Positions 1 through 30,440 are shown, counted from the first letter of the stretch. The stretch: 64,000 nucleotides of DNA from Candidatus Alloscybalousia intestinigallinarum (GCA_018716115.1 DVKF01000005.1:397-64396); one strand, 5' to 3'. Notes: generated from the sequence alone by a model not told the origin. A program made the numbers and translations.

Positions 1-3000
1 AGTTCTGAGGTAGATATTAAGAATGAAGGACTACGCAATAAATCTAAGGTAGCTATACTTAAATCTTCAGTATATACACCAATTGGTAAAGAACTAAATC
101 CATGTAAAGATTCACGAACAAAATCTATAGTTACTTTTTCTGGAAGAACTGGAATATTCTTTGCGCGATAAGTATATTGTTGATTTAACGTAGTAATTGT
201 TTCTTTTACCGTTTCTAAAATATGTTCAACATCACTAATATAAGCCGTTTGAAACTCGTAAACCGCTTCTTTCCGAACCAATCCACGACCAGTTATCCGA
301 GAAGGATAAACCCCATTGGTTCTTCCAATAACAGAAGAATATTCAGAATTATCATTAAGTTGTAGAACTAATTTAAGAGAGATATTTTGAACTAAACGAT
401 AACGGATACTATTAATACCAGACGCACTGAGAATAAAATATAAACCATATTTAGCTCCTTCACGAGTTAACTGTAACAAATTTTCTTCATAAACCCCATA
501 AGTATCTAAAAAGGCTTCAAAATTATTAATGATGGTGACTAACATTGGTAACGTTTTTCCACTTTGTTTACAATATAAAGAATAACTACCATTAAAATCA
601 GTAAACAAATCTTTTCTAATTTCTATCTCTTCGTTTAACATCTTAAATAAATTAGTAATCTTTTCTTTATCATCAGACAAGGCAACATCGCCAACATGAG
701 GAGCATCTTTATACATTTTTAATGTCTCTGCTCCTAAATCCATGATATAGAAGTTTACTTCTTCCGGAGAATAAGTCGTCATACTGGAATAAATAATTGT
801 ACTAAGTAAATTTTCTTTTCCACTACCAGATATACCATAAATCGCAACATGTCCATTTTCACTAATCGGTAAAGTCAATAAGTCTTGTCGTTGGTTATTA
901 GGATCATCGAATTCACCAATAATTGGATTTAAGACAAAGTCTTCTTTTTGATAAGCATATTTCTTTTTCATCTCTTCTAAAGAAATAAAATCAGGAATAC
1001 GGTCTAACCATAGTTGTTTCAAATGAATATTATCTTCATTCGCAATACCCACTAAATATTTCATAATATTCGGAAGTTGTTCACCCATATCGACAACTTT
1101 CTTGATTTTCTGATTATTATCATTAACGGTTTTCATCACATGACCAACTTCGTCAATAAAATCTAAAGCGTCATCCATTTTTTTCTGTACTTTTTCTGTT
1201 GGAATATATTTAGCACCACACCAAGCAGATTGTCCTAACGCAAAGAATTCATCATAACCAACTTGTAAATAGAAACGTCCAGTTTCCTTAATCATAGCTG
1301 CATCAGGACGTTTAATCATATCCATACTATCTGATTTACCCTGTACTTTTAAACACACTCTAAATTTACTATTACTCCAAATCTGATCATTAACAACGCC
1401 ACTTGGTTTTTGAGTAGCTAAAATTAAATGTACACCTAAACTACGCCCAATACGAGCAGTAGAAATCAATTGATCCATAAATTCAGGTTGTTGACTTTTA
1501 AGTTCTGCAAACTCATCACTAATAATAAACAAATGAGAAATTGGTTCTTGAACTAATCCTTCTCGATACAACCGTTGATACTTATAAATATCGATAGTTG
1601 CTTCTCCTAAAGCTTCTCGAGCCTGATTAAACATTCGTTGTCTTCTTCTAAGTTCAGATTGAATAGAAGCCAAACTCCTCGTCATCTCGTTAGTATCCAA
1701 GTTAGTAATAGTTCCTACCAAATGAGGAAGTTTTACCCCAGTCTCCCTATTTTCAAAAGCACCAGCTAAGCCACCACCCTTATAGTCAATCAAGACGAAT
1801 TGTACCTCATTAGGATGATAATTAATCGCCATTGATAAAATATAAGTAATGATAAATTCACTTTTTCCACTACCTGTTGAACCAGCTATCAAACCATGAG
1901 GACCATGAAATTTTTCATGTAAATCTAGTTTAAATAATTCACCATTAGGATAAACACCAATCGGTGCTTGTAAAGAGGTAATCGGATCATTCATTCGCCA
2001 GCGATTACGTACATTTAATTGATCAACTAACCCAACACCATACATTTCTAAGAAAGTAATCATATTTGGTAGAGCATCATTCGCATCATCAGAGACAATA
2101 GGAATATTAGATAACTTTTGACTACACGCAGTAAGAGAAATATTAGGAACATAATCCATCACGAAAGTACGTTGTTTAGTCGAAATCATATCGCTTTCTA
2201 CTAATCCTGATGTCTTTTCATGGACATCCATAAAAGTATTACATTCTTTAGGAAGTTCTGAAATACGATTAGCTAGTATCAATAAATGAAAGCCAACATT
2301 TTCTTCTTGATTTAAAATATCTTTAACGATACCTAAATCTTTAACTTTTTTATAATTATCCGTAATGACAATATAATATGGTGGAAAATTCTTATAATCC
2401 GCTTTCTTTTTCGTAGAACTATTATCACTACCCTGACTTCTCTCTGCAAATATAGCTTCTAAATAAGAAGAAATCATTTTCATATTTTCACTATTTGTCG
2501 CAACAAATCGTAATGATTTCTGATTATCCCAACAATGTGGTAAAACTTTTGTGTAGGAATAGCGGACCAAATTATCTTCATCCACTAAAAATACTAGTTT
2601 TAAGTTGGCATAACTATGAAAAGCAATTAACTGTAAAATTAGATTTTGTAAAAATATATATTTCCGGTCTAAATCTCCCATGATAGAAGAAACAGTCCGA
2701 TTTGCAAAAGAAAAACCAACTGGCACATTCATTAAATCGCGTGATTGATTCACAATAGTGTACACTTCTTGAAGTAAATTATCTTCATCAAGAGTGAAAT
2801 GTTCTTCTGGTGCTTTAATATTTAATTCAGCGGGAACCACACCGATTCCTAAACGAACAGCTAAAAAGTCGTTATCGGTAATTCTTCTTTCCCACAAAGT
2901 ACGCTTCTTTACCATAATAATGGCATTACACTCTTCTAATGGAAGATAAATTTCATTAAGCGTTTGAATTTGTTTCTTCATTTCCAATTGAATTTCTGCT

Positions 3001-4043
3001 TCCATCTTCATTAAATATTGATGATATTTTTCTTGACGATACTTCTCACGTTTTATTTTTTGTTTCTTTTGATAACGTCGTGATAAAGTAGGAAGTAAAA
3101 TTGTTCCTAACAACATGGAAAAACACATTACTAAAGAAGGAAGTACAGTATTAAAAGAGCGTGTTCCTTCCATCAACCCCATAATAGCGGTATACCCTGT
3201 CATCAAAGACATCGCACTCATCGTAAGCATAGGACCAATCGTAAAAATGAGGGGAACTTTCTGTGGTTCTTGTTTAGCAGGAGGAGCATCGATTCTAATT
3301 TCTTTTGCTTCTACCGCACTTCTAATTCTTGGCGATTGAGAAAAGTAATCCTCTTCTTGATATAATTCCAAATCAGCAAGTTCAACTTCTGGTAAATCAG
3401 GAGGCAATGCGATACTTGGAGCAGTAGGCTTTTCTTGAAAAAACGTTTTACTTACTTGAACTTTATGATTAGGATTATTAATGACCAAAAAGTTACCCAT
3501 ATAAACAATTCTTAATCCATAAATAAAAATAATATCACCAATTTTCAAAGGAGAGTAACGACCAAGATTTTTTTGATTTACATAAACACCCGAAGTAAAA
3601 GCCTCTAGAAATGGAACATTTTCTTTATACTCCATTTTCGCATGAACATTACCAACTAATGGAAGATCATAAATAATTGCGTTTTCTCCACTACGTCCTA
3701 TCGTAAATGGTTCATTCGGTTTTAATACATCTAAAAGAATGTTACTAGTATCACAATTAGGAGAACAATATAAAATAAACTTTTCAGTCAAATCTCCACT
3801 ACGAAGAAAATAAAACTGATAATCTTCTAAAACGATTTGGTCAGAAATCAACTGATTATCTGACATAATAAACTCTATATCTGTATTACTTTTTGATACC
3901 CAATGGTTATTACTAACAAATATATTGATAAAATCTTTTTTCTTTCCTCTTTTATCAATATAAGAAACCCAATAATTACCTTCAACTCGTTCAGGTAACA
4001 TAAACTCATCTATTTTATTCTCTCTTAAAATTAATAATTTCAT
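1..4043 (-). CDS. essC: Type VII secretion system ATPase EssC (FtsK/SpoIIIE family). It is truncated at the C-terminus by the window edge. The N-terminus MKLLILRENKIDEFMLPERVEGNYWVSY has the FHA domain typical of EssC. Two P-loop domains fall inside the window (GSTGSGKSE...IDYKGGG and GISGSGKENLL).
   Basis: I translated the reverse strand by eye and found one continuous frame from the ATG at 4043 to position 1 with no stop. The track shows no ORF here because the stop lies outside the window. FtsK-type Walker A motifs were read at about 1800-1870 and 790-850. A GGGAG RBS sits 8 nt upstream of the ATG. Confidence 0.85.
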   Translation of the reverse strand, partial: MKLLILRENKIDEFMLPERVEGNYWVSYIDKRGKKKDFINIFVSNNHWVSKSNTDIEFIMSDNQLISDQIVLEDYQFYFLRSGDLTEKFILYCSPNCDTSNILLDVLKPNEPFTIGRSGENAIIYDLPLVGNVHAKMEYKENVPFLEAFTSGVYVNQKNLGRYSPLKIGDIIFIYGLRIVYMGNFLVINNPNHKVQVSKTFFQEKPTAPSIALPPDLPEVELADLELYQEEDYFSQSPRIRSAVEAKEIRIDAPPAKQEPQKVPLIFTIGPMLTMSAMSLMTGYTAIMGLMEGTRSFNTVLPSLVMCFSMLLGTILLPTLSRRYQKKQKIKREKYRQEKYHQYLMKMEAEIQLEMKKQIQTLNEIYLPLEECNAIIMVKKRTLWERRITDNDFLAVRLGIGVVPAELNIKAPEEHFTLDEDNLLQEVYTIVNQSRDLMNVPVGFSFANRTVSSIMGDLDRKYIFLQNLILQLIAFHSYANLKLVFLVDEDNLVRYSYTKVLPHCWDNQKSLRFVATNSENMKMISSYLEAIFAERSQGSDNSSTKKKADYKNFPPYYIVITDNYKKVKDLGIVKDILNQEENVGFHLLILANRISELPKECNTFMDVHEKTSGLVESDMISTKQRTFVMDYVPNISLTACSQKLSNIPIVSDDANDALPNMITFLEMYGVGLVDQLNVRNRWRMNDPITSLQAPIGVYPNGELFKLDLHEKFHGPHGLIAGSTGSGKSEFIITYILSMAINYHPNEVQFVLIDYKGGGLAGAFENRETGVKLPHLVGTITNLDTNEMTRSLASIQSELRRRQRMFNQAREALGEATIDIYKYQRLYREGLVQEPISHLFIISDEFAELKSQQPEFMDQLISTARIGRSLGVHLILATQKPSGVVNDQIWSNSKFRVCLKVQGKSDSMDMIKRPDAAMIKETGRFYLQVGYDEFFALGQSAWCGAKYIPTEKVQKKMDDALDFIDEVGHVMKTVNDNNQKIKKVVDMGEQLPNIMKYLVGIANEDNIHLKQLWLDRIPDFISLEEMKKKYAYQKEDFVLNPIIGEFDDPNNQRQDLLTLPISENGHVAIYGISGSGKENLLSTIIYSSMTTYSPEEVNFYIMDLGAETLKMYKDAPHVGDVALSDDKEKITNLFKMLNEEIEIRKDLFTDFNGSYSLYCKQSGKTLPMLVTIINNFEAFLDTYGVYEENLLQLTREGAKYGLYFILSASGINSIRYRLVQNISLKLVLQLNDNSEYSSVIGRTNGVYPSRITGRGLVRKEAVYEFQTAYISDVEHILETVKETITTLNQQYTYRAKNIPVLPEKVTIDFVRESLHGFSSLPIGVYTEDLSIATLDLLRSPSFLISTSE

Positions 4044-4285: not shown

Positions 4286-5479
4286 TTATTTGGCTTCGAA
4301 ATAAAAATTCTTAACATCATCAACATCAAAGCTGTAAAAAGCAGTCCCATCTTTTTTCATCAAATCATAGCGATTAGTATCCGAATTATAAACAAGGGAA
4401 TCAAACTTATTATTGTTATTTTCAAAATTAAACTGCACACCAGGTCTAACTAGTCTTGCATTTTCAGGAAAAGGTATAGTTTCATGATTTGAAGATAAAT
4501 TGTCCATATCCACATCATAGCGTCCAGTATCCGGATCTATTGTCGTACCAACTGGCTCAATAGTAGTACCATCCCCAGCTGATACTGATGTTGAATTAGA
4601 ACTGGTGTTTTCTATATCTGTAAAATCATTAAATAAAGCAGCATTTTTATCCATCATAGAACTATCAAGAGTATTTCCCGTTTGACTATCATAAATAGTA
4701 CCACCATTTTCCATATAAGTATAAATTTGCTCCGGAGACCAATTTTTTGCCGTTTCCAAATCCACTTGGGAAGGATAATTTTCGTTACCATTCGAAATAG
4801 AAGAAGTGGTTACGTCTGTATCAGAAGTCCCAACTGAAGCCTCCCCTGCAGTACCATTTTCTAAATCAGCATTCATTTCTTCAGTAAAAGTAGCTACTGC
4901 CTCATCCGTAGCATCAGGAAGATTAACCCCTTCTTCAGTTGTATACCCCATTACCGTACCATCTTTTACTATTTGAATTGTTCCATCCTCTCTTGGAACT
5001 AATTGCAATTCGCCTTCCCAATACTGTTTATGTACCTTATCTTCAGCAATAAAACTTCCCAATGCCGCACTACCTGCAGTAGCTGAAATTTTTGAAAAAT
5101 CAAGTTGACTTGAGGTTATATTTCCATCTCCTAATTTACTTGCTAACTCCAAAGCAGCTAAACTTTCATCTAGTTTCGATTGTAACTCTAAAATTTCTTG
5201 ATCTGATGTTTCATATGTAGCTATTGTTTCATTCACCAAGAAAGAAGCAAACTTTTGTACCCCTTCTACGTATTTATTACAACTCGTAGAAAATACATTA
5301 ATTTGTTCATAAAAATCTTTAGATGATTGTTTATCTTTATAAGTTACACCATTTTCCATTAATGATTCTAATTTTTGCAAAACATCTTTCAAAGCCTGAT
5401 CTAATTCTTCTGACTTAGAAAATAACCTTTGCGAATGCTGAGTTACCGCTTCAACACTTAACCCTAAATTTTGTCCCAT
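4286..5479 (-). CDS. LXG-like putative T7SS substrate or polymorphic-toxin-type protein. It has a helical N-terminal ~120 aa, an S/T/D/N-rich linker and a short C-terminal domain.
   Basis: The ORF track gives 397 aa. The N-terminal pattern LSVEAV...YKDKQSSKDFYEQINVFSTSCNKYVEGVQKF resembles the LXG or YeeF N-domain. It sits in an operon with a WXG100 gene directly upstream, matching the Lap-type adaptor arrangement. Confidence 0.4.
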   Translation of the reverse strand: MGQNLGLSVEAVTQHSQRLFSKSEELDQALKDVLQKLESLMENGVTYKDKQSSKDFYEQINVFSTSCNKYVEGVQKFASFLVNETIATYETSDQEILELQSKLDESLAALELASKLGDGNITSSQLDFSKISATAGSAALGSFIAEDKVHKQYWEGELQLVPREDGTIQIVKDGTVMGYTTEEGVNLPDATDEAVATFTEEMNADLENGTAGEASVGTSDTDVTTSSISNGNENYPSQVDLETAKNWSPEQIYTYMENGGTIYDSQTGNTLDSSMMDKNAALFNDFTDIENTSSNSTSVSAGDGTTIEPVGTTIDPDTGRYDVDMDNLSSNHETIPFPENARLVRPGVQFNFENNNNKFDSLVYNSDTNRYDLMKKDGTAFYSFDVDDVKNFYFEAK

Positions 5480-5490: not shown

Positions 5491-5817
5491 CTAATTCAAA
5501 TCGCTATCAATAGCTGCCTTTCTAGCATCAGCATTTTCTTGCGTTATCCGAGCGGCTTGTTTTAAACTACGAGCAACACTATCCAAAGTGTCGTTTAAAA
5601 GTTTCAAATCACCATCATATTTTGTAATATTTTTAATATATTCATCTGCGGATTCACCCTTCCAAGCACTCTGTATTTTAGAAACTTCATTAGAAATGTC
5701 CCTTCGTATATCCGCAATTACTTCTGAAGTATGATGAACTATATCAGCGTGATCATTTAAAACAGCAGGTTCATAAGAATAACTCCCACCTACTCCTAAC
5801 CCTATATCATTAGCCAT
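5491..5817 (-). CDS. WXG100 family protein (EsxA-like, or a Lap-like targeting factor).
   Basis: The protein is 108 aa and helical, with a central W-x-G (SAWKGESADEY) at about residue 51. Size and position match the WXG100 family. Confidence 0.75.
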   Translation of the reverse strand: MANDIGLGVGGSYSYEPAVLNDHADIVHHTSEVIADIRRDISNEVSKIQSAWKGESADEYIKNITKYDGDLKLLNDTLDSVARSLKQAARITQENADARKAAIDSDLN

Positions 5818-5913
5818 ATTATTTCACTCTCCTATCATTTTTATCTTTAAGTTAACTATAGCAAAACGAAAAAAAATAGTAAAGTCTTTTACAGAACTTT
5901 ACTAATTTTTACA

Positions 5914-6981
5914 TTAACGATACTTATTTCCACCTGACGTTAGTTGTACTCCTTTAGGACTGCTAGAAGATCGAAATGAGCGAAAGGTATGTGTAGGCTG
6001 TAACTCCCCTTTTAAATACCCTTCGACAATTTGAGCTGTACTTGGATCATATTGATGATTCGCATATTTTTGATAATGACCATCCAAATAAGAAGCGAAT
6101 TGTCCTTTTTCTGTAACAACATCATATGGATTACTTCCACCCCAATTTCCATCTTCTGCACGGTTCATAATGGCTGACATTACATTCTTTACTTCTTCTG
6201 GATTATGCCCAGCTTCATGTTGAACTACCGCACATATGGTATCAAATTGTTCTGGAGTAATGGTATAGTTTGGGGTCGCTACCCCTATGCCAGAAGCAGA
6301 ACTACTAGGCACAGAAGCTTGAGCTAAATTTTCTCCTAAGTGTACGGTTGTCGTAGTAACTGTCTCCTCCGGCTGAGTACCAAGCACTGTTTCTGTCGTA
6401 GCTTGGTTTCCTAAAGGAGTCGTAACCGAAGCAGCAGCCGTTGCTACTGTAGATGCTGCTGCCATATCGCTAACTGTCAAATTAGAAACTGTCGCATCAT
6501 CAGTAGAAGATACTTCTGGATGAGACGCAAGTGAATTTTCTTCAACTACAGGTTGTGCGACTACTGGACTCTCACTAGAAGAAGAAATAGTAAGAGCAGA
6601 AAGATTAGGCGTAATCTCTGTAATTGGAGTAAACGCAGGTGTAGCCACAACTTCGTCTACTAATACTCCTTCCGCACCTAAAGTGGCATTTTGAATTTGA
6701 ATATTATTTTGCACATTAGTCTGTAAAGCTAGGGCAAAATCACTCAAATTATTTCCGATTAAACCAACAAAATTGATTAAATGAATCAAATTAGGCTGAT
6801 AATTAACCAATTCTGTAACATATTGCGTAGCATCGCTACCTACCCAATTATTCTGAATTTGAAAGGCAACTCCATAAATATTTTTTACTGTATCAAGAAC
6901 TCCAGAAACATCTGTATTCTTAATTGTGTTCGCAGTATCCATTAGTACTCTAACATTAGCCAAATAATCAACCATATTCAT
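5914..6981 (-). CDS. Fusion protein with an N-terminal WXG100-like domain (NNWVGSDATQY), a long S/T/A/V-rich linker and a C-terminal SleB-type cell-wall hydrolase domain (Hydrolase_2).
   Basis: The C-terminal AVVQHEAGHNPEEVKNVMSAIMNRAEDGNWGGSNPYDVVTEKGQFASY matches the SleB cell-wall-hydrolase signature (E-A-x-G-E ... V-x-N-R ... GQF). The N-terminal 100 aa have a W-x-G at about residue 45. Its own promoter lies upstream. Confidence 0.6.
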   Translation of the reverse strand: MNMVDYLANVRVLMDTANTIKNTDVSGVLDTVKNIYGVAFQIQNNWVGSDATQYVTELVNYQPNLIHLINFVGLIGNNLSDFALALQTNVQNNIQIQNATLGAEGVLVDEVVATPAFTPITEITPNLSALTISSSSESPVVAQPVVEENSLASHPEVSSTDDATVSNLTVSDMAAASTVATAAASVTTPLGNQATTETVLGTQPEETVTTTTVHLGENLAQASVPSSSASGIGVATPNYTITPEQFDTICAVVQHEAGHNPEEVKNVMSAIMNRAEDGNWGGSNPYDVVTEKGQFASYLDGHYQKYANHQYDPSTAQIVEGYLKGELQPTHTFRSFRSSSSPKGVQLTSGGNKYR

Positions 6982-7014
6982 TACCTCCGTACTTTAATGA
7001 TATATTCTATAAAA

Positions 7015-7043
7015 AGTATAAAAGTTATCCCATTAAAAGTCAA
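7015..7043 (-). promoter_or_regulatory. Sigma-A promoter of the effector operon: TTGACT, 17 nt spacer, TATACT.
   Basis: The hexamer pair has near-consensus spacing about 30 nt upstream of an ACGGAGG RBS. Confidence 0.45.
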
Positions 7044-7047: not shown

Positions 7048-8025
7048 CTAACCCCTAAAATGACAAATCAATCTTTTCTCATGATTAATCATTTGATAAA
7101 AAAGAAGATCTTCCGTTAAAACAACAATTTCTTTTAAATAAATGGTCTGAGATAAAACTTCCATAATCGCAAGTAAGAGTAATAAAGAAAATTCTTCTAA
7201 CAAAGAAGGAGAAATACCACTAATATAAATGGTCCCACTATATTCCATTTCTTTTTCAAGCACCATAAACGCATCGTAAAATTCTTTAATTATTCGACTT
7301 TCATCTGCATGCTGATTACTAATTTGAGTTAAATTTGAATAATCAGGTAAAAGAGGTATAAACTTTTCTGTGGAAAACTTATTCTGATTAACGTCACTTC
7401 CAATTATAATACCTGAAGCCACATTACCTAAACGAACAGAAACATTCTTACGTAAAATCTTCTGTAAATCATAAAAATGACAACCTAAAATAGAAACATC
7501 ATAAAAAAGTTGGGCTAATTTCAAAAAAGAATAATTCATCGGAATATAATCATTATCAAAATAAAGATGACTACTTCGACAATACGGACATAAACATAAT
7601 CCCTTCTTATTAACCATAGAAATTTTATCCACATAAAACACTTGTAAACAATGATAACAAGCCGCAATATTATTATAGTCCAACTTAGAAACATCACTAC
7701 GATTGTCTTTCAAATTTCTAATTTCTACCAAAATTTCTTTCAAAGAATAATCACTGATTGGTAAATAATCATCAACATATTCTAAAAGACGTTGAATTAA
7801 TAAACGAAGTTGATTATTTTTTACATTTTTTGTATTCGCGATTTTATATAGAGAGATTAACATCTCTTCTTCACTCATCTTAGATATAGGAGTATCAGAA
7901 AAATTCATATAAAGTTGGTGATAATTTCTAGGTACCCGAAGAAAATAAGAGACATCTTCATATAATTGAGGTAAACGTTTTATTTCTAATTTTTGATATT
8001 TTTCTAACCACCAGTATTTCTTCAT
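7048..8025 (-). CDS. Hypothetical protein with Cys pairs (CYHC...CLCPYC).
   Basis: The 325-aa ORF has no recognisable catalytic motif and no TM segment. It lies between the T7SS effector operon and a zinc-ribbon membrane protein. Confidence 0.5.
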   Translation of the reverse strand: MKKYWWLEKYQKLEIKRLPQLYEDVSYFLRVPRNYHQLYMNFSDTPISKMSEEEMLISLYKIANTKNVKNNQLRLLIQRLLEYVDDYLPISDYSLKEILVEIRNLKDNRSDVSKLDYNNIAACYHCLQVFYVDKISMVNKKGLCLCPYCRSSHLYFDNDYIPMNYSFLKLAQLFYDVSILGCHFYDLQKILRKNVSVRLGNVASGIIIGSDVNQNKFSTEKFIPLLPDYSNLTQISNQHADESRIIKEFYDAFMVLEKEMEYSGTIYISGISPSLLEEFSLLLLLAIMEVLSQTIYLKEIVVLTEDLLFYQMINHEKRLICHFRG

Positions 8026-8086: not shown

Positions 8087-8974
8087 CTATACGGTACTTT
8101 GTTCTCGTGTAAATTCAATGACTTCTAATGTTCTAGGAATATAGAGAATCAATCGATTATAATTTTCTTTATCTAATTTAATTAAAAATCCATCCTGAAA
8201 ATAGGAACTAAGTGAAGATTCACCACTCGAATATTCTAAATTAAGAGAAGTATCTACCCAATAATAGTAATAATCTTGATCAGCAAATATCACATCCCCA
8301 TCTCGAGAAATAGAATAACCACCACTCGCATAAATAGATCCCGTTAAATAATCACTAGAGGTATCTCTGCGATCGAAATAAAGATAATACTTATCATCGA
8401 TATCAGATAAATACAATAATTGATTATCTTCATTTACCCAATATCCATATATTTTTTGTTCATAATACCCAGCCATAAAAGCATCTTTGAAATAATCACC
8501 AATCGTTGTAGAATAACCATTATCTAATACAATATGAATAGAAAATACAGCTAGAATAATCGATAAAATAATGGTAGTAATTCCACCAAAAATACTAAAT
8601 AATAACGAACTAACTTTTACTCCCTTAGAAGCACGTTTTAAATTTACTAAACATAAGATAAACGCTATACAAGCTAGGAGAAGTCCAAGACCCCATTTAA
8701 AAAAACAAAGTGGAATCGCTAAAATAGATAAGACAATCGCAAGATAAGAAAAACGATTATCTACCTCATAATTCTGCTTAAACCGAGGCGAATCCACATA
8801 TTGAATTCTCTCTTTTTTTGAAGATTGTTTCTCAGCATTATCTTCTTTATCTTCCCATAATGAAGTAACGCGATAGGAAGCAAAAGGATCATCATAAGTA
8901 GATAGATGCTCACCACAATAAGGGCAAAATTTAGCATCATTCATAATTTCTGCGCTACATTTTGGACACTTCAT
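8087..8974 (-). CDS. Zinc-ribbon membrane protein with an N-terminal CPKC...CPYCG ribbon, two or more TM helices and a Y/D/S-rich C-terminal domain.
   Basis: The motif MKCPKCSAEI...KFCPYCG is followed by hydrophobic stretches (LAIVLSILAIPLCFF, ITTIILSIILAVFSIHIVL). It is a paralogue of the protein at 55881-56786. Confidence 0.6.
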   Translation of the reverse strand: MKCPKCSAEIMNDAKFCPYCGEHLSTYDDPFASYRVTSLWEDKEDNAEKQSSKKERIQYVDSPRFKQNYEVDNRFSYLAIVLSILAIPLCFFKWGLGLLLACIAFILCLVNLKRASKGVKVSSLLFSIFGGITTIILSIILAVFSIHIVLDNGYSTTIGDYFKDAFMAGYYEQKIYGYWVNEDNQLLYLSDIDDKYYLYFDRRDTSSDYLTGSIYASGGYSISRDGDVIFADQDYYYYWVDTSLNLEYSSGESSLSSYFQDGFLIKLDKENYNRLILYIPRTLEVIEFTREQSTV

Positions 8975-9082: not shown

Positions 9083-10057
9083 ATGAAAGTAGCCATCATC
9101 GGAACAGGAGCTTACGGTCTAGCTTTAGCTCTTACCATAGTAGAAAATAAACACCAAGTTATGATGTGGACAAAATTTGAACAAGAAAAAAGAATAATTG
9201 AAGAAAATCATCAATATGAAAAAGTATTACCTAATATCAAAATACCAAGAAGTATTCAAATTACTCTCGATATGAAAGAATGTATCGATCAAGCTGAATT
9301 AATTATGATAGCTGTACCTGCTGGATTTGTTAATGATATTTGTCTAGAAATGAAAAATTGGATAAAACCAAATCAACATATCTGCATTGCTTCTAAAGGA
9401 ATTGAGCAAGGAACTTATTTATTTATCAATGATGTAGTAAAAAAACATATAGATACTCCAAATATTGCGGTTATTTCTGGTCCTAGTTTTGCTATTGATA
9501 TTGCATCAAAAATGCCAATTGGCTTAACACTTGCAACAAAAAATAAAGAAACTGATTCCATCATAAAAAGCGCACTAGAAAACAGTCATTTCAAGTTACG
9601 AAGTACTGGTGATATTTATGGAACGGAAATCTGTGGTGCAATCAAAAACGTCATTGCGATTGCCTCAGGAATGTTAAATGGATTAAATGCCCCAGAATCC
9701 ACCCAAGCAATGTTCATTACCGAATCCTTACATGATATCAAAGCATTAATTCAAAAACTAGGTGGAGATGGAAAAACAATTCTTTCCTTCGCAGGATTTG
9801 GAGATTTATTATTAACCTGTACTAGTAAAAAAAGTAGAAACTTTACCTTTGGTCAATATTTAGCCACTAAAAGTCAATCAGAAATCGAAGAATATATAAA
9901 TACTCATACTATAGAAGGATTATATACCTTAAAAGCAATCTATAAATTAATTTCTGATAAAGAAGTAGATATTCCGATTATCAACTTAATCTACGATACA
10001 GTATTTCATCAAAAAAATCCAAAAGAGTTACTCACTTTCTTAATTGAAAAAGAGTAA
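9083..10057 (+). CDS. gpsA: NAD(P)H-dependent glycerol-3-phosphate dehydrogenase.
   Basis: MKVAIIGTGAYGLALA is a Rossmann N-terminus. The full-length pattern matches GpsA (ISGPSFA, GAIKNVIAIA). Confidence 0.9.
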   Translation: MKVAIIGTGAYGLALALTIVENKHQVMMWTKFEQEKRIIEENHQYEKVLPNIKIPRSIQITLDMKECIDQAELIMIAVPAGFVNDICLEMKNWIKPNQHICIASKGIEQGTYLFINDVVKKHIDTPNIAVISGPSFAIDIASKMPIGLTLATKNKETDSIIKSALENSHFKLRSTGDIYGTEICGAIKNVIAIASGMLNGLNAPESTQAMFITESLHDIKALIQKLGGDGKTILSFAGFGDLLLTCTSKKSRNFTFGQYLATKSQSEIEEYINTHTIEGLYTLKAIYKLISDKEVDIPIINLIYDTVFHQKNPKELLTFLIEKE

Positions 10058-10066
10058 CTCTTTTAT

Positions 10067-10666
10067 TTAAGCTGCTGGAATATTTAAAATAAAATTCTCA
10101 GATTGAACGATCTCATCATTTTCATTTAAAATTCTAATCAATAAATTATTTCTTTTCCCCGGTACAAAACCAGTCAACGTATAATAGTGTTTACTTTGAA
10201 GCAAATCATTTCCATTCGCATCCAGCATTCGCTGATAAACCAAGTCTTCATCAGTCGCAATACTATCGGTTGTGACGTAATACTCAAACTTATATTTTTC
10301 CCCTGTATGAAAATAAATATTCACACTCTCTTCATCTTCTAAAAAAGGATCATATAAGATAAGCGGAGAACTAATTTTATAATTATCTATCAATAAGCGA
10401 TCGATTTTTTTCTGGACAATTTCGCGATATAAATCATGAGAAATATCTAGAGTCTCTGGCATCTCAACCACAAAAATATTATCCCCTATTTGATAATCTT
10501 CGACAAACTCGATATTATCCTCTATCCATTCGATGTCATTTTCATGACGATTGACATAATCCTCATAAGATTTTTTTCCATAATCATAGATAAACATCGT
10601 TGCCCAGACTAAAATAAGACCTAAAATACCATATTTTAAAATTCGTTTTATCCAACATTTTTTCAC
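10067..10666 (-). CDS. Hypothetical membrane-anchored protein.
   Basis: The protein is 199 aa with an N-terminal TM segment (ILGLILVWATMFIY). Confidence 0.5.
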   Translation of the reverse strand: MKKCWIKRILKYGILGLILVWATMFIYDYGKKSYEDYVNRHENDIEWIEDNIEFVEDYQIGDNIFVVEMPETLDISHDLYREIVQKKIDRLLIDNYKISSPLILYDPFLEDEESVNIYFHTGEKYKFEYYVTTDSIATDEDLVYQRMLDANGNDLLQSKHYYTLTGFVPGKRNNLLIRILNENDEIVQSENFILNIPAA

Positions 10667-10721
10667 TTTGCTTCACCTTTTTTCAATTATACTACAACTT
10701 TATCAAAGTAAGAAAGAAAAA

Positions 10722-11219
10722 TTATCGTTTACTTCTTAAATCAGGATAACGATAATCATAATTTTGATCATTACGAGCTTTTCGGTAATAGCCAACCCTC
10801 TCGGCAGTATTAATACTAAATTTATTATAAATACTAATATCTCCTCGTAACTGTTTTAAATTTTCTACATGATTTAACAAATAATCAGAAACTTCTTTAA
10901 GTACCAAATAAGAAAGATCTTGACCACGATAATCCTCATGAAGACCGTACTCTAATTTCATGATGCCAGCAAAATTCAAATCTCCTAGATGTAAGTAACC
11001 CATTAACTTCCCATCCAATTCTAATAAATAAGAATGATTAGGCATCAGCTTATTAAAATCATTAGAAACATTAGAAGTTGGAGCGAGTTGTTCTTGGATG
11101 TGTCGAAAACCATATTTTAGAAAGAGTGGATCAGAAGATAAATCTCGCCGAAATTTTAAGTGTTCTTTTTTGTCTAAACAAAAATCTGTAATCGTTAATT
11201 TACCAATCGGAAGCTTCAT
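10722..11219 (-). CDS. Probable GNAT-type acetyltransferase.
   Basis: The protein is 165 aa. A YRGQDLSYLVLKEV segment resembles the acetyl-CoA binding motif. The match is weak. Confidence 0.35.
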   Translation of the reverse strand: MKLPIGKLTITDFCLDKKEHLKFRRDLSSDPLFLKYGFRHIQEQLAPTSNVSNDFNKLMPNHSYLLELDGKLMGYLHLGDLNFAGIMKLEYGLHEDYRGQDLSYLVLKEVSDYLLNHVENLKQLRGDISIYNKFSINTAERVGYYRKARNDQNYDYRYPDLRSKR

Positions 11220-18973: not shown

Positions 18974-19897
18974 ATGAAGGTGATAACTATGTATCCAATG
19001 TATCCATACATCGGAAAAAAGAAAATCTGTAAAGAAATCCCCCTTTCCTTTCCCGCAAGCCATCAAGATTCACAACCTGGAATCGAATACCTAATGGATC
19101 CTAAACCAATCTTTGACAATCCCAATCAACGAGGAAGTAATAAACTATTGGGGAAGGTGGCTGTCATTACCGGTGGTGATAGTGGTATCGGTAGAAGTGT
19201 CGCTGTTCAATTTGCGAAAGAAGGTGCCGATATTGCGATAGTTTATTTTGATGAAGTTGAAGATGCGGAATTCACGAAAAATTATATCCGCAAAATGGGA
19301 AGAAAATGCATCACAATTAAAACAGATTTAAGGCAAAAAGAAAATAGTCAATATGCCATAAATTGTGTCATCAATACTTATCATAAAATTGATATCTTGG
19401 TAAACAATATCGCTGTTCAATTTTTACAAGATAGTATTTTAAATATCACAGAAGAACAATTACTACTCACTTACCAAACTAATGTCTTTTCCTATTTTTA
19501 TATGATACAAGCAACACTACCTTATCTAAAAGAACACTCTACAATTATTAATACAACTTCGGTCACTGCCTATCAAGGAAACAAAAAATTAATCGATTAT
19601 AGTAGTACTAAGGGCGCAATTGTTGCCCTAACTAGATCACTTGCACTTTCCTTAGCTGAGAAAAAAATTCGTGTTAATGGTGTCGCACCCGGTCCGATTT
19701 GGACACCATTAATTCCTGCTTCTTATTCTGCTAAAGAAGTGGAAACCTTTGGAACCTATACTTCTAAAACACCACTCATGCGGGCAGGTCAACCATTTGA
19801 AGTTTCCCCATGTTACGTTTTTCTAGCTAGTGATGATTCTCGATATATGACTGGGCAAATTCTTCATCCTAATGGAGGAATTATTACTGGTAGTTAA
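18974..19897 (+). CDS. SDR family oxidoreductase (YghA/YhdF-like).
   Basis: The glycine-rich loop is KVAVITGGDSGIGRSVAV. The protein is about 300 aa with an N-terminal extension typical of this SDR subgroup. Confidence 0.8.
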   Translation: MKVITMYPMYPYIGKKKICKEIPLSFPASHQDSQPGIEYLMDPKPIFDNPNQRGSNKLLGKVAVITGGDSGIGRSVAVQFAKEGADIAIVYFDEVEDAEFTKNYIRKMGRKCITIKTDLRQKENSQYAINCVINTYHKIDILVNNIAVQFLQDSILNITEEQLLLTYQTNVFSYFYMIQATLPYLKEHSTIINTTSVTAYQGNKKLIDYSSTKGAIVALTRSLALSLAEKKIRVNGVAPGPIWTPLIPASYSAKEVETFGTYTSKTPLMRAGQPFEVSPCYVFLASDDSRYMTGQILHPNGGIITGS

Positions 19898-21681
19898 TCC
19901 TCACTCACGGTAAAAGAATGTGGATAATCACGAACTAATTCGCGAACAAAACAAGATTCTTTACCCTTGGGAATTAATAAATAAACATAATTTTTTGTTC
20001 TTGTTAAAGCGACATAAAATAATCTTCTCTCCTCACTAAAACGATAATTTTCTTCCTCGAGAGAAACAAATTTCAACACATCTGAATCTTCGATTTGATT
20101 AGGAAACCCCATCTTACCTTCCGCAACATGAAGCAAAATAACATTGTCTTCTTCTAATCCTTTTGATTTATGAACCGTCAGATAACGAAGAGGAATTTCT
20201 TGATAGGGTAAATAAATTAATTTACCTGTTTTTTCATCGTAGCGAAACTCCTGATCAATAGAAGAATAAATATCCCGATTATTTCTTCCCAACACTAAAA
20301 TAGCGGTTTGAAAACTATGATAAACTTCTTTGACGACTTTTTTGAAAGTTCGTACAGCATTCTGATAATAAATAAGACGAATTGGCTGTTTTAGTCTTTT
20401 CATTGCCTGTAAATTTTTCGAAAGTTGATGAGGGTTCTTCATTACAAAACTCCCAGCAACAGTAACTAATTCTTGACTATTTCGATAAGTTTTTTCTATT
20501 TTCATCACGATTGGATGAGGAAAATAACGTTCAAAATGAAGAAAAATCGATAAATCGCAGCCAGTAAATCGATAAATCGATTGAAAATCATCTCCTACTG
20601 CCATAAATTTCGCCTGTGTCATTTTCAAAATTGCCTGAACCAATTTGACACGTACCAAAGAACTGTCTTGATATTCATCAATAATTAAATAACGACACGA
20701 AAAAGGCATTCCTTTTTTTAAAACCGAATCTGTTGCCAATCGAATCATATCATCAAAGTCAATCTCTCCTTGAGAAGATAGCTCATTTTCATATAGGTGA
20801 TAAAATAAATACGCAAAACTTAAAAAGGTCTTTTGCTTTTCGCGCTTTCTCAAAGAAAAGCTTTTTTTATTTTGAGAAAAAAAGTGAATAAAATCCTCTA
20901 AAGAATAAGCATTTGTCTTAAATAGACGAATAAACTTAACGATTAACTTTTGAAACAACACCCGTTCTTCTTTAGGCAAAAAATGATGATAACTATACGT
21001 TGGTGAAAAAGGAAAATAATGAATTTCCAGATACCGAAGTAAACCTTTCATCATTTTAGGATAAAGAAAAATCGTAGTTTGAAAGTATTCCTCAATTAAA
21101 TATTCTAACAAATCAGCTGGTGCCACTCGATAAGGATAATGACTATTCTTTCTTAAAATATGAAGAGCTAATCGATGAAAAGTATAAATACGAATTGGAT
21201 ACTTAAATGTCTTATCGATACTTTTTTGTAGACTTTTGGTCGAATCATTAGTAAAAGAAAGAACGATAATCTCGGATGGAGAAATATTCAAACGCTCAAC
21301 AAGATAACGAATCTTGCCAATAATGGTAAGACTCTTACCGCTTCCAGCTCCCGCAATGACCAATTGATGAATTTCATCGGTAAGAACTACCCGTCTTTGT
21401 AAATCATCTAGGGAATAACCTTGAATATCCCGAAGAAGTAGGTCACAATTTTTTTCTTCTTTTTGAAGCCATAATTCATTCAGTTTGACTAAATATTCTT
21501 CCAAATTTTCGTAATCGTGACAAAAAGTAGCGAAGCTAATATCTTCATTTCGATATACAATTACTCGTTGATAAAGAGGCGCATACTTTTCTTTTAATGC
21601 CAAGCGTTTTCGATAATCCAAATAGCCATGATCAGAAAGTTCTCTAATCTGACGATAAAACTCATCTACTTGTTCTCGCAT
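19894..21681 (-). CDS. UvrD-superfamily helicase, short HelD-like paralogue.
   Basis: Motif I is LVIAGAGSGKSLTIIGKI. The protein is 595 aa. It is divergent from the 816-aa paralogue. Confidence 0.65.
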   Translation of the reverse strand: MREQVDEFYRQIRELSDHGYLDYRKRLALKEKYAPLYQRVIVYRNEDISFATFCHDYENLEEYLVKLNELWLQKEEKNCDLLLRDIQGYSLDDLQRRVVLTDEIHQLVIAGAGSGKSLTIIGKIRYLVERLNISPSEIIVLSFTNDSTKSLQKSIDKTFKYPIRIYTFHRLALHILRKNSHYPYRVAPADLLEYLIEEYFQTTIFLYPKMMKGLLRYLEIHYFPFSPTYSYHHFLPKEERVLFQKLIVKFIRLFKTNAYSLEDFIHFFSQNKKSFSLRKREKQKTFLSFAYLFYHLYENELSSQGEIDFDDMIRLATDSVLKKGMPFSCRYLIIDEYQDSSLVRVKLVQAILKMTQAKFMAVGDDFQSIYRFTGCDLSIFLHFERYFPHPIVMKIEKTYRNSQELVTVAGSFVMKNPHQLSKNLQAMKRLKQPIRLIYYQNAVRTFKKVVKEVYHSFQTAILVLGRNNRDIYSSIDQEFRYDEKTGKLIYLPYQEIPLRYLTVHKSKGLEEDNVILLHVAEGKMGFPNQIEDSDVLKFVSLEEENYRFSEERRLFYVALTRTKNYVYLLIPKGKESCFVRELVRDYPHSFTVSED

Positions 21682-21838
21682 CTATCCATCACCACAATCA
21701 CCTTAAAAGAAAAAGACAAGATTGTCAAAAGATAGAAAATGAAAAAGTGCAATGAAAAAAGAAAGAAAAAAAGAAAAAAAGGCCCAATTATAAAATTTTG
21801 AACCGTTTCTCTTCTACAATATAGAAAAACACTTTATT

Positions 21839-23980
21839 TTAAAATTCTAAATCTTTTTGCATAGCTTCTACTTCAATGTAATCCGTCAAATAGTGCTTTT
21901 TAGATAAATGCTTAGGTACATATTGGATATTTTTTTCTTGAATCACTAAATCTCCCGTTTCTAATTGGAACGGATCAATTGGCTCTTGTTTTATTGTATT
22001 TAATACTTGAAGCAATTCTTCTTTAGAGATTTCTTGATCAAGATGTAGAAAAATAGGAATCCGATAAATAGACTCAATATGAGAAGCAATCCCATGACGA
22101 AGAAAAACTAGTTGTAGAGTAGTCAAAGATTTTGTCCCTAAATAAGGAAATAAAGCATAATAATGATCAGAAAGTAGTACGATATGCTCATGATCTAAAG
22201 TGGCATTACAGAATAACTGTCTACTCTTGTCTAATAGATTTTTGGCATTAGCGCGTAAATAAGGATAAGAATCTTTACTACTTAAAATCTCTTTCATCTT
22301 TTTTAAGATTTTGGTGGCAATAATAATCTCGTCTGGTCCTTCCCAATAACTCTTAGAAATTCCTTTTATTTTTTTTACAAAAATCTGTCGCTTTTCCGCA
22401 TTAATTTCCACGACTCGCCAACTATTTCCTGCTAAAATCAATGTTTCTCCAACTGGCACCAAAGTATTTATAGTACCAATTTCTCTGGACTCTTCACGAA
22501 CCGAATATTCGATTTCATTTTCAAACACCGTTAAAAACTGATACTTAGAAATCGTTTGACTCCCCTTTTCGCCAATCAACAAATCTCCTTCTTCATCCAT
22601 TTCTAATTGATCAATTTCTAACCAATAATGTAGTAAGTCACGATAATCTTCCTGAGAAACTTGCTGGAATGGGGAAAGAGTAAGCATGTACTCTGCTAAA
22701 GCGCTTGGCGTTATACTTCCTATCGACGTTAAGTAACACATGGTTTGATGATATAAAAGCGGATAAGGAAGTTTAGCTTGCCGCAAAGGTTCAATCCACT
22801 TTTCCTTTGTATATAATTCAATCAAAGCAATGCAAAGAATCATATCCCAATCAATTTGTTGATAAAACTCTTTATTTTTCTGCTCAGTATCGTCTTGATC
22901 TTTTTTGTCAAACAGAAACATCATCTCACTGATGCCTGTTCTTCTACCGCTTCGACCTAACCGTTGAACAAAACTAGAAACACTATATGGTGTCCCTGTT
23001 TCAATAATTCGCTCCAAGTCGCCGACATCAATCCCCAATTCCAAAGTGACAGTCGCACCCACTACCGTCTTATAATCACTCGTTCTCATTTCCCGTTCTG
23101 CATATTCTCTTAAACCACCAGAAACATTGCCATGATGAGTAAAATAGAGATCGGGAGTCTGTTTTTTTGCCGCTAGTAATTTTAAATTGGCAATATTGAG
23201 TTCTACTTCACTTCTACTATTAGAGAAAATAATGCATCGTTTTCCAAAAGATAAATGATAAAGCTTATCATAGAAATCAGTCTCTACTACTGCATCATCA
23301 ATGGAAAGGTGAATCGTCCGTTTCTCCCCACTTGCTTGAGGAACTACGCACTTCCGATTCGTTCCTGATGATAGCCAATCTGCGACTTCTAAAGAATTTC
23401 CCACTGTCGCACTTAACCCTATTCTTCTTGGAGAACAACCAGTCAAGCGACTTAAGCGTTCTAACAAAGAAAGCAGTTGAATGCCTCGATTTTCTCCCAT
23501 AAAATAATGAACTTCATCAATCACGATATAACGTAAATCAGAGAAAAACAAAATAGCTTCCTGTTTACGAAAAGTAAGCATAGCTTCTAATGATTCCGGG
23601 GTAATTTGTAACAAACCTTTGGGATTCTTTCGTAATTTATTTTTATGTGAAACAGATACATCACCATGCCACTTATAAACTGGAATATCTGCTTCGATTA
23701 AAAGATCAGAAAGTCGTTCAAACTGATCGTTAATTAACGCTTTTAAAGGACTGATGTATAAGATACCAACTGAAGAAGAAGGATGTTGATAAAGATCTGT
23801 TAAGATTGGTAGAAACGCCGCTTCGGTTTTCCCACTAGCTGTACCACTAGATAATAATAAATGATTATCCGTATTTAAAATAATATCGATACTAGCCACC
23901 TGAATATCTCGTAACTCTTCCCAACGATTACGATAAATATAATCTTGAATAAAAGGAGCTAACTGATTAAAGGCACTCAT
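21839..23980 (-). CDS. DEXH-box (Lhr-like) superfamily-2 helicase, the third gene of a TerB-ATPase-helicase defence triad (Shango SngC-like).
   Basis: Motif I is SSGTASGKTEAAFLPIL. Motif II is VIDEVH. Motif III is SATVGN. Motif VI is QRLGRSGRR. The start overlaps the upstream ATPase gene by 4 nt. Confidence 0.7.
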   Translation of the reverse strand: MSAFNQLAPFIQDYIYRNRWEELRDIQVASIDIILNTDNHLLLSSGTASGKTEAAFLPILTDLYQHPSSSVGILYISPLKALINDQFERLSDLLIEADIPVYKWHGDVSVSHKNKLRKNPKGLLQITPESLEAMLTFRKQEAILFFSDLRYIVIDEVHYFMGENRGIQLLSLLERLSRLTGCSPRRIGLSATVGNSLEVADWLSSGTNRKCVVPQASGEKRTIHLSIDDAVVETDFYDKLYHLSFGKRCIIFSNSRSEVELNIANLKLLAAKKQTPDLYFTHHGNVSGGLREYAEREMRTSDYKTVVGATVTLELGIDVGDLERIIETGTPYSVSSFVQRLGRSGRRTGISEMMFLFDKKDQDDTEQKNKEFYQQIDWDMILCIALIELYTKEKWIEPLRQAKLPYPLLYHQTMCYLTSIGSITPSALAEYMLTLSPFQQVSQEDYRDLLHYWLEIDQLEMDEEGDLLIGEKGSQTISKYQFLTVFENEIEYSVREESREIGTINTLVPVGETLILAGNSWRVVEINAEKRQIFVKKIKGISKSYWEGPDEIIIATKILKKMKEILSSKDSYPYLRANAKNLLDKSRQLFCNATLDHEHIVLLSDHYYALFPYLGTKSLTTLQLVFLRHGIASHIESIYRIPIFLHLDQEISKEELLQVLNTIKQEPIDPFQLETGDLVIQEKNIQYVPKHLSKKHYLTDYIEVEAMQKDLEF

Positions 23981-25299: not shown

Positions 25300-25347
25300 C
25301 GTAAACCCTCCTTGTATATTTTTGTTTATTTCTTTTTGATTTTTCCT

Positions 25348-27821: not shown

Positions 27822-28064
27822 CTATTCGACCAATAGATGATCCTTTTCAAGGTCATGCAAAAATCGATACTCGCTTTTCTTTATTTTGGCATTCTTATTG
27901 ATAAATACTTCTCTACTAGAAATCAAAATTTCAATCACAATTTGTCTTAGTCCTACTTTAATTACTTTCTTGTAAGTAGGAAACAATAAATTCTCTTGAT
28001 AGCGATATCGATAATATTCAAGTATTTTTAAATCGATATCTCCTCTAATTCTAATCGCAATCAC
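27822..28064 (-). CDS. Small hypothetical protein downstream of the sigma factor gene.
   Basis: The 80-aa ORF runs co-directionally with the sigma factor gene. Confidence 0.3.
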   Translation of the reverse strand: MIAIRIRGDIDLKILEYYRYRYQENLLFPTYKKVIKVGLRQIVIEILISSREVFINKNAKIKKSEYRFLHDLEKDHLLVE

Positions 28065-28185
28065 CTCTAATTATAGTGTTTACAATTAGACAGAATTCAT
28101 GAGGTAAAACAAGAATTTTAAAGAAGGAAAAAGTAAATATTCATTTTAATAATAACAAAACAAAATGAAAAATAGCAGATTATCA

Positions 28186-28773
28186 TTATAAAAATTCCCG
28201 CAAATTTTCTTTTAAAATTTTTAAACATCGGTGATATTCTTTGGAAATAAAGGGCTGTTTAACGCCAAATTTTTGAGCAAGTTCTCCCTGAGTCATATGT
28301 GAATAAGAAAAAAGAGAAAAAGAGTGACAAATAATTTCACGATGAAAATCATCTAACTTGCTAATTTCACGAAATAGTGCTTCATATAATTCTGCTTGTA
28401 CCAATTGTTCATCAAAACAAAGAAAGTCTGTCTTTGCTACATAATACTCTAAAGCAACAGTATCCTTATCAGAATAAATTTCTTGATCCAAAGAAAGGTC
28501 TTTTCCCCCAATCGGGCGTCTTTTTTGCGCATGGCACATTCTCATATAATTCGCAATTTCATTTTTTATACATTTACAAAGAAAAGTACTGATTTTATAC
28601 CCCTTAGCTGGATCAAAGTTTCTAACCCCTTCAATTAACCCAATCTTTCCGATTGAAAACAGATCTAAATACGATAAATTTAAATCGTTATATTGAAAAT
28701 GATACCGCTTAATTACAAGCCCAATCAACTTTATATTTTCTAAAACTAACCGCTCTTGCTGAGGTGTGATCAT
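28186..28773 (-). CDS. RNA polymerase sigma factor, sigma-70 family (a small SigH-like or group-3-like protein).
   Basis: Region 2 is DLFSIGKIGLIEGVRNFDPAKGYKISTFLCKCIKNEI. A region-4 HTH is present (MTQGELAQKFGVKQPFISKEYHRCLKIL). Confidence 0.7.
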   Translation of the reverse strand: MITPQQERLVLENIKLIGLVIKRYHFQYNDLNLSYLDLFSIGKIGLIEGVRNFDPAKGYKISTFLCKCIKNEIANYMRMCHAQKRRPIGGKDLSLDQEIYSDKDTVALEYYVAKTDFLCFDEQLVQAELYEALFREISKLDDFHREIICHSFSLFSYSHMTQGELAQKFGVKQPFISKEYHRCLKILKENLREFL

Positions 28774-30360: not shown

Positions 30361-30440
30361 GAAAAATTAATGGATAATTCTTTAGCAATACTGCATCTCA
30401 TCCGACTTCATTTCTTTAGTTGGACATAGTATAACACAAT

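Follow-up and report, generated by a model that had tools for sequence, protein, structure and literature searches.

Recent reviews leave open how type VIIb secretion system (T7SSb) substrates cross the thick Gram-positive wall of the cell that produces them (PMC13492133), and how its toxins cross the wall of the prey (PMC10765036). Both questions bear on a gene in a 64,000-nucleotide (nt) stretch of DNA from Candidatus Alloscybalousia intestinigallinarum (GCA_018716115.1 DVKF01000005.1:397-64396), which is called the window below. The gene lies on the minus strand close to essC, and its product joins an N-terminal WXG100 homologue, through a long acidic linker, to a C-terminal SleB-fold (Hydrolase_2) domain. 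We regard this architecture, together with the status of the protein as a type VII secretion system (T7SS) substrate, as highly probable. Whether the protein is an exported lytic transglycosylase that serves its own secretion system, as a functional analogue of EssH of S. aureus, is in our judgement evenly balanced. The parts of the gene are given here, and residues are numbered throughout by the 355-amino-acid (aa) open reading frame (ORF).

5914..6975, minus strand: whole gene, WXG100-linker-SleB-like protein, 353 aa from the ATG at 6975; stop codon at 5914-5916
6679..6975, minus strand: WXG100-type helical hairpin, residues 3-101; W-V-G turn at 6838-6846
6598..6681, minus strand: invariant extended segment LGAEGVLVDEVVATPAFTPITEITPNLS, residues 101-128, just past the hairpin; predicted local distance difference test (pLDDT) score 61-78, no secondary structure
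6262..6666, minus strand: low-complexity acidic linker, residues 106-240, ~135 residues
6304-6399, minus strand: invariant island ETVTTTTVHLGENLAQASVP, residues ~195-226, inside the linker; a low-confidence beta hairpin in the AlphaFold2 (AF2) model
5917..6261, minus strand: SleB-fold (Hydrolase_2) lytic-transglycosylase-like domain, residues 241-355; candidate catalytic Glu256 at 6214-6216

A WXG100 homologue joined to a SleB-fold domain

When the N-terminal domain was compared with family models, Pfam WXG100 (PF06013) matched residues 13-87 with an E-value of 0.0028 and 18.3 bits (cut-off 27.3), and TIGR03930 gave an E-value of 0.0011 and 19.1 bits (cut-off 44.85), both matches lying within residues 13-89. 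A WXG100 assignment made from such family scores alone would be weak. The profile of the domain was searched exhaustively over 1.84 billion representative proteins (E <= 0.001), and seven proteins were recovered: P0006, P0013, P0014, P0015, P0016, P0017, and P0018 (P-numbers denote matched proteins, and L-numbers the loci of relatives). P0013 and P0014 are truncated or fragment copies, P0017 comes from a chimeric contig, and P0018 is a spurious repeat protein. P0016 is a bona fide WXG100 protein of 100 aa, which scored 35.6 bits with Pfam WXG100 (cut-off 27.3). It aligned with the N-terminal domain in hhalign with a probability of 97.5% and 38% identity over 76 columns, the W-x-G motifs being in register, and when P0016 was searched against the whole window by tblastn, it matched the N-terminal domain with an E-value of 5.7e-13. 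The neighbouring 108-aa WXG100 protein also aligned in register with the domain. Thus, in spite of its sub-threshold score, the N-terminal domain is homologous to WXG100 proteins by way of P0016.

The AF2 model, built on a composite alignment of nine sequences, had a mean pLDDT of 58.9, with values of 70-85 in the two domains; an earlier run with a three-sequence alignment of the N-terminal domain gave 41.6 and was discarded. In the model, the first ~100 residues form a helix-turn-helix hairpin of the WXG100 kind, with W46-V47-G48 in the turn that joins the two long predicted helices. This triplet is unchanged in all homologues, and the alignments place it opposite WTG in P0016 and opposite WKG in the neighbouring WXG100 protein. 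The head is a hairpin of ~100 residues and not an LXG domain of ~200 residues, and Pfam LXG (PF04740) did not match the protein at E <= 1. The matches to WXG100 and to SleB in the PDB came from fold searches only; PDB sequence searches matched neither, whether they were made with the full protein or with the profiles of its N- and C-domains.

In the C-terminal domain, Pfam Hydrolase_2 (PF07486) matched residues 266-340 with an E-value of 2.8e-7 and 31.5 bits (gathering cut-off 27), and the fold search indicated that the modelled domain adopts the fold of the SleB catalytic domain. This part of the protein is a SleB-fold Hydrolase_2 domain with a candidate for the expected glutamate. In the model, Glu256 closes the first helix of the domain, within ...VVQHEAGHNPEE... 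(HEAG), and it is unchanged in all relatives, including proteins of only 41% identity. When the domain was aligned by hhalign with a SleB sequence, Glu256 fell within one residue of what we take to be the SleB catalytic Glu. SleB uses a catalytic glutamate, and the equivalent residue is essential in a SleB-fold type VI secretion system (T6SS) effector (PMC11148199). The C-terminal domain alone gave no candidates as a word-index protein query, and a search with its alignment returned known proteins only.

The linker between the two domains consists of 73% S/T/A/V/P/E, with 14 D/E and 0 K/R, and is the fastest-evolving part of the protein, with a 36-residue deletion in P0006. Two islands, at residues 101-128 and ~195-226, are invariant, and the first of these could be a docking or export motif. 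A Kyte-Doolittle scan of the protein detected no transmembrane (TM)-like or signal-like hydrophobic segment; the protein carries neither a Sec or Tat signal nor a membrane segment, and it is for this reason that we take the hairpin to be the export module. The initial annotation had described, at 5914-6981, a W-x-G motif in the first ~100 residues, a SleB-type Hydrolase_2 signature at the C-terminus, and a long S/T/A/V linker between them. The minus-strand ORF matches these coordinates exactly and contains all three elements, and the idea that the N-terminus would model as a WXG100 hairpin was borne out by the AF2 model, the fold search, and the alignment with P0016.

The ratios of nonsynonymous to synonymous substitution rates (dN/dS), computed against three relatives with dS of 0.64-1.2, were 0.08-0.13 (residues 1-103), 0.26-0.31 (linker), and 0.02-0.06 (C-terminal domain). 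The gene is under strong purifying selection. As it is also retained as a single intact ORF in at least eight independent metagenome assemblies, the ORF is not a chance one.

The conservation of the enzyme domain bears on the possibility that the hairpin is not an export signal and that the protein remains in the cytoplasm, whether as a regulator, as a partner of WXG100 proteins in the manner of a chaperone, or as a relic without activity. Such roles would be in keeping with the Pfam WXG100 score below the cut-off and with the fact that no export motif was identified in the sequence. However, a catalytically intact-looking wall enzyme with dN/dS of 0.02-0.06 has no substrate in the cytoplasm, the homology to bona fide WXG100 proteins is significant, and an exported precedent exists in EsxW of B. 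anthracis, which combines a WXG100 head with a large C-terminal domain and is secreted (PMC3297441). It is therefore very improbable that the protein acts in the cytoplasm.

The T7SS locus and its variation among relatives

The hydrolase gene belongs to a block of genes on the same strand, in the order zinc-ribbon membrane protein, Cys protein, hydrolase, WXG100, LXG-like protein, and EssC. Its neighbours are the following.

8087..8974, minus strand: 295-aa protein, first gene of the block; N-terminal zinc ribbon and hydrophobic TM-like segments at residues ~73-154
7048..8025, minus strand: 325-aa Cys-motif protein (CxxC...CxCxxC), cytoplasmic; always immediately upstream of the hydrolase gene
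5491..5817, minus strand: stand-alone WXG100 protein, 108 aa; Pfam WXG100 E 2.3e-11, TIGR03930 above its cut-off
4286..5479, minus strand: LXG-like protein, 397 aa; helical ESAT-6-like N-terminus, invariant central motif, variable C-terminus
3..4043, minus strand: EssC (FHA + FtsK/SpoIIIE ATPase); truncated after 1347 aa, where the window ends on the left

A full-length orthologue of this EssC in a relative (93% identical) scored 1067.9 bits with TIGR03928, the T7SSb EssC equivalog model (cut-off 778.4). The gene had initially been placed at the head of a T7SS effector operon. The T7SS context is real and, since EssC (start 4043) is encoded only two genes downstream, stronger than was then stated, but the gene heads the T7SS core locus and not an effector operon only. 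The order TM protein, Cys protein, WXG-hydrolase, WXG100, LXG-like protein, and EssC is kept in L001-L007, L009, and L010. The gene that comes after essC in relatives encodes an 84-aa protein whose sequence looks EsaB/YukD-like, although no family model matched it; five small WXG100-like helical proteins and then leucine-rich repeat (LRR) proteins with a pilin leader come next. The content of the locus in L001-L006 thus comprises EssC, the 84-aa protein, and approximately seven WXG100-like proteins. The T7SS may be a minimal or divergent T7SSb, or its other parts may be encoded elsewhere in the genome. The T7SS block of the relatives closes with large LRR_5 repeat proteins that have a type-IV-pilin-like N-terminal methylation leader (L002 20295-21065+, L012 11093-13042).

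The Cys protein and the TM protein are no more than candidate T7SS components. With the Cys protein as a metagenome marker, three more distant loci (L016-L018) were found, in which the trio of gpsA, zinc-ribbon TM protein, and Cys protein is kept and is followed, ~0.3 kilobases (kb) past the Cys protein, by what appears from its sequence to be an Rpn/YhgA-like transposase-like gene. As all three contigs end at this gene, they are uninformative on the hydrolase slot.

The hosts are uncultured gut Bacilli, and one of the metagenome-assembled genomes is labelled 'Tenericutes'. A producer without a wall was rejected, as genes for MreC and for an M23 peptidase, the M23 domain of which was confirmed, are present in the genome of a close relative; the lineage is thus walled. 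In the relative genome, genes resembling SpoIVFA and SpoIVFB adjoin mreCD, the M50 assignment being a provisional one.

The identities to the relatives differed sharply along the block. The enzyme domain, with 90-96%, is its most conserved sequence, whereas the flanking housekeeping genes are mostly 81-90% and EssC 91-95% identical. The identity of the 108-aa WXG100 protein falls from 72%, by way of values down to 31%, to undetectable, and the LXG-like protein is 40-65% identical, with a C-terminus that is exchanged between lineages. These patterns show that the diversifying cassette is the WXG100 and LXG-like pair and not the hydrolase, and the 397-aa LXG-like protein is likely to be the polymorphic effector of the locus. 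The hydrolase itself does not have the polymorphic C-terminal toxin domain and downstream cognate immunity gene that characterize LXG toxins: the gene directly downstream of it encodes a WXG100 protein in every locus compared, and no immunity-like gene (for a lipoprotein or an exported small protein) was found beside the enzyme domain in the three contexts compared.

Within the 397-aa gene, the window carries at 4916-5113 (minus strand) a motif of ~66 aa, SSQLDFSKIS...HK.YWEGELQLVPREDGTIQIVKDGTVMGYTTEEGVNLP, which is also found in L008 at 1197-2387. The motif is near-invariant between lineages, while the surrounding N-terminus and C-terminal domain vary or are replaced, and no Pfam family matched it. 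In P0007, the same motif stands ahead of a linker and a SleB-like domain.

A replacement of the enzyme domain was found in a distant relative, L013, where the slot between the Cys protein (47% identity) and WXG100 is filled by P0015. In this protein, a homologous WXG head (exhaustive search, E 4.7e-7) and a similar linker poor in K/R precede an unrelated C-terminal domain. The latter is tentatively assigned to the double-psi beta-barrel (DPBB) fold, to which it gave two independent weak matches at the same motif (Pfam EXPB1_D1, E 0.022; kiwellin, E 0.065). Bacterial DPBB enzymes (RlpA, MltA, and the 3D-domain proteins) also cleave glycan strands. No gene was added or exchanged alongside the enzyme domain in L013, which argues that no immunity partner travels with it, and the swap without exchange of neighbours fits a slot reserved for wall-opening activity and not a toxin-immunity module. 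The Cys protein and the TM protein were considered as domain-specific immunity proteins and were rejected, as both stay in place when the enzyme domain is swapped.

The initial annotation had left it open whether the protein is an antibacterial effector or a facilitator of secretion like EssH. The comparative evidence leans to the facilitator, on account of the conserved enzyme domain, the fixed slot, the domain swap under the same WXG head, and the finding of no immunity gene; the antibacterial role is weighed here as an alternative. The protein would in that case be a T7SS effector that degrades the peptidoglycan of neighbours, or a helper that opens a way through the prey wall for the LXG-like toxin. 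A WXG100 head with a C-terminal enzyme is the architecture typical of T7SS-delivered toxins (PMC3482391), although the same catalogue of polymorphic toxins, from 2012, puts wall-degrading domains only under T6SS, PVC, and TcdB heads and not under WXG or LXG heads. Similarly, a SleB-fold domain is already known as a toxic T6SS effector dependent on the equivalent Glu, but that effector has a periplasmic immunity partner (PMC11148199), and no immunity-like gene adjoins the hydrolase gene in any of the three contexts. Reviews hold that factors encoded by the aggressor must aid toxins across the prey wall (PMC10765036). In L008, moreover, the SleB-like clade is fused, in P0007, behind a motif of 40 residues that the LXG-like protein also has, with another EssC gene adjoining, which suggests that modules are shuffled among substrates. 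Against this stand an enzyme domain that is the most conserved part of the region and not polymorphic, and upstream Cys and TM proteins that remain when this domain is exchanged. We consider an effector role, the main alternative, unlikely.

A loss of the system was seen in L012 (UMGS592), a close relative. At 9992-11096, an in-frame deletion at a 'VNE' microhomology breaks off the hydrolase at residue ~108 and joins it there to the beginning of a WXG-like gene of 151 aa, and a nonsense mutation follows. The deletion took the SleB domain and the genes for WXG100, the LXG-like protein, EssC, and the EsaB-like protein, along with four small genes; the T7SS was lost in this lineage, and the hydrolase domain was lost together with EssC. 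We rejected the reading of L012 as a WXG head on a different toxin, a sign of polymorphic toxins, because the fusion is a microhomology deletion and EssC is gone.

The possibility should also be considered that the enzyme is an ordinary autolysin, or one of growth, separation, or germination, for which the T7SS or lysis is merely the exit and which has no role for the machine. Hydrolase_2 domains are found in spore-cortex or general wall enzymes, and the closest relatives of the enzyme domain outside T7SS loci are DUF348-G5-Hydrolase_2 proteins (P0008-P0012, 38-45% identity), an architecture that we take to be that of RpfB/YabE-type vegetative wall-remodelling enzymes. Since the nearest outside relatives are of this type, the SleB-like clade is presumably not confined to the spore cortex. 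The SpoIVFA/SpoIVFB-like genes beside mreCD in the relative genome, and the indications that the gene may form its own transcription unit (below), would also suit an autolysin. On the other hand, the profile of the N-terminal domain matched just 7 of the representative proteins searched, the SleB-like clade lies in or beside an EssC locus wherever the contig is long enough, and it was lost with the T7SS in L012. The protein is also without the signal peptide and the peptidoglycan-binding domain of SleB, and no gene for a YpeB-like partner was found nearby. Thus, an autolysin unconnected with the machine is improbable.

Gene boundaries, expression signals, and the rest of the window

The ORF listing counts the minus-strand ORF at 5914..6981 as 355 aa from its first ATG. 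The sequence GGAGG at 6984-6988 lies 2 nt ahead of this ATG and 8 nt ahead of the second one, at 6975. Since the gene calls of the homologues all open with MVDYL, the true start is probably the ATG at 6975, which would give a protein of 353 aa. The sole database name attached to the protein family is 'peptidase'. A tblastn search with the gene against plasmid and phage collections gave zero matches, and an endolysin or a plasmid-borne gene was ruled out for these two sets. Two candidate signals flank the gene.

7015..7043, minus strand: promoter-like TTGACT-17-TATACT within the 66-nt gap that lies upstream of the gene; a consensus match only
5865..5915, minus strand: hairpin with T-tract, terminator-like, directly 3' of the stop codon; dG -13.4 kcal/mol, z -3.3

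For the promoter-like site, the region as a whole was not enriched in comparison with shuffled sequences. The terminator-like hairpin is kept in L001, L005, and L009; it was overlooked by the terminator scan owing to its AT-rich stem, and a TG-extended -10-like site for the next gene comes after it. With a promoter-like site on the 5' side and a conserved hairpin and T-tract on the 3' side, the hydrolase gene may be its own transcription unit, as far as such consensus-level predictions go.

Elsewhere in the window, a four-gene block at 19894-27015 (minus strand) encodes a UvrD-like helicase, a DEAD/DEAH helicase, a BrxC/BrxD-type ATPase (PF10923, E 9e-166), and a protein with TerB_N and TerB_C, and looks like an island of the phage-defence type. 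The region at ~28000-38000 has 22-29% G+C, against ~32% elsewhere; it contains genes for an 835-aa protein with a Sigma70_r4 match only, a 633-aa protein without a family match, and a TPR protein, and it may be a foreign island. A gene for a 912-aa AAA ATPase adjoins that of an Mbeg1-like protein at 42226-46264 (minus strand), and a gene for a 725-aa VWA-domain protein adjoins that of a bacterial TSP3-repeat protein at 53704-56786 (minus strand). In some relatives, an IS605-family OrfB/TnpB gene lies between the genes for Met-gamma-lyase and a GNAT protein (L001/L002 4574-5710); it is absent from the window (~11216).

A proposed role in secretion

In the mechanism that we propose, export and docking would both fall to the WXG100 hairpin, acting by itself or in a pair with a second WXG100-type protein from the locus. 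The EssC ATPase would recognize the hairpin, which would take the protein to and through EssC. Once past the membrane, the enzyme domain would be able, thanks to the linker, to reach the peptidoglycan that surrounds the secretion site, and there it would cleave glycan strands by means of Glu256. The local opening of the producer's own vegetative wall could then let out bulky substrates, such as the neighbouring 397-aa LXG-like protein.

A requirement for such an activity has been described in S. aureus, whose T7SSb depends on a dedicated wall hydrolase in association with the machine; this enzyme, EssH, has a CHAP domain and is exported by the Sec pathway, explicitly without being a T7 substrate (PMC13059805). 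The contrast between CHAP and SleB domains that had been drawn at the outset is thus correct. Like EssH, the protein studied here is a wall hydrolase encoded at the head of a T7SS locus and conserved with that locus, and the same job is proposed for it; EssH also has a non-catalytic N-terminal part that is needed for its function (PMC13059805). Unlike EssH, which is a CHAP amidase/endopeptidase with a Sec signal peptide, it would be a SleB-fold cleaver of glycan strands, with a WXG100 head in place of the signal peptide. The solution would differ from that of EssH in that the hydrolase itself is proposed to be a T7SS substrate, perhaps fused to an EsxA-like subunit.

The other systems with which it can be compared are similar in part. 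Like the WXG100- and LXG-headed substrates (EsxW; the LXG toxins TelC and EsaD), the protein has a helical N-terminal targeting domain followed by a functional C-terminal domain, and it is encoded with small WXG100-like partners near essC. It is unlike the LXG toxins in its shorter hairpin, its conserved C-terminal domain, and the absence of an immunity gene; the target of TelC, moreover, is lipid II and not glycan strands. From the SleB/CwlJ spore-cortex enzymes (PDB 4fet, 4f55), it differs in lacking a signal peptide, a PG_binding_1 domain, and a YpeB partner, and in its T7SS context rather than one of sporulation, and the similarity is too low to be found in the PDB by phmmer or hmmsearch. 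The DUF348-G5-Hydrolase_2 proteins have all the invariant residues in common with it, including the Glu, but they are membrane-anchored and probably Sec-dependent, and have no WXG head and no known link to a T7SS. Like T6EC3, the SleB-fold T6SS effector that needs its catalytic Glu (PMC11148199), it has a SleB-like domain as the cargo of a specialized secretion substrate; T6EC3 differs in belonging to a Gram-negative T6SS, in its periplasmic immunity protein, and in its delivery head and clade. Finally, the lytic transglycosylases of type III and type IV secretion systems and of pili (EtgA, VirB1) are likewise machine-associated glycan cleavers that make a local gap in the wall (PMC13059805), but these have lysozyme or Slt-type folds, are Sec-exported, and belong to diderms, whereas the present enzyme would be a substrate of the machine.

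Several points weigh against the proposed role. The Pfam WXG100 score of the N-terminal domain is below the gathering cut-off, and the AF2 model, built on nine sequences, is of medium confidence only. SleB requires the muramic-delta-lactam of the spore cortex, so that activity of the enzyme on the vegetative wall is an assumption. The DPBB assignment of the swapped domain hangs on E-values of 0.02-0.07. The terminator-like hairpin would part the gene from the rest of the locus, and co-transcription with the T7SS genes is not assured. EssB/YukC, EsaA/YueB, and EssA/YueC gave no family match within 10 kb on either side of essC in L001-L006. An enzyme may be conserved and have no immunity gene close by and yet act as an effector, either antibacterial or one that breaches the prey wall, since the producer may be protected by peptidoglycan modification, as in a T6SS case (PMC7439305), or by a distal immunity gene. 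The chief limitation is the uncultured state of the hosts.

Enzymes with a WXG or LXG head are already a known kind, and so are hydrolases associated with a T7SS. In 2026, the authors of the EssH study noted no obvious hydrolase in the ESS loci of Bacilli and Streptococci (PMC13059805), and a full-text literature search that paired WXG100 and Hydrolase_2, or SleB and type VII, returned nothing relevant. A more specific proposal can be made tentatively, and we hold it to be somewhat short of an even chance: in a locus with no EsaA, EssA, or EssB recognizable within 10 kb, a conserved EsxA-like core WXG100 subunit would be covalently fused to a lytic transglycosylase, so that the machine exports its own wall-drilling tool; in a sister lineage, the place of this tool in the slot would have been taken, with the head unchanged, by a non-homologous wall enzyme, probably of the DPBB type.

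The sole characterized answer to the question of wall crossing is EssH of S. aureus. The construct described here, in which a linker connects a WXG head with an enzyme that has one candidate catalytic Glu, is compact and testable, and it points to an unusual, perhaps minimal, T7SS among gut Bacilli that are abundant but uncultured. If the proposal is true, wall opening would be built into the substrate repertoire of the system, as an activity conserved at the head of the locus and exchangeable for another wall-active domain, and this would constitute a second, mechanistically distinct route for T7SSb substrates across the Gram-positive wall.

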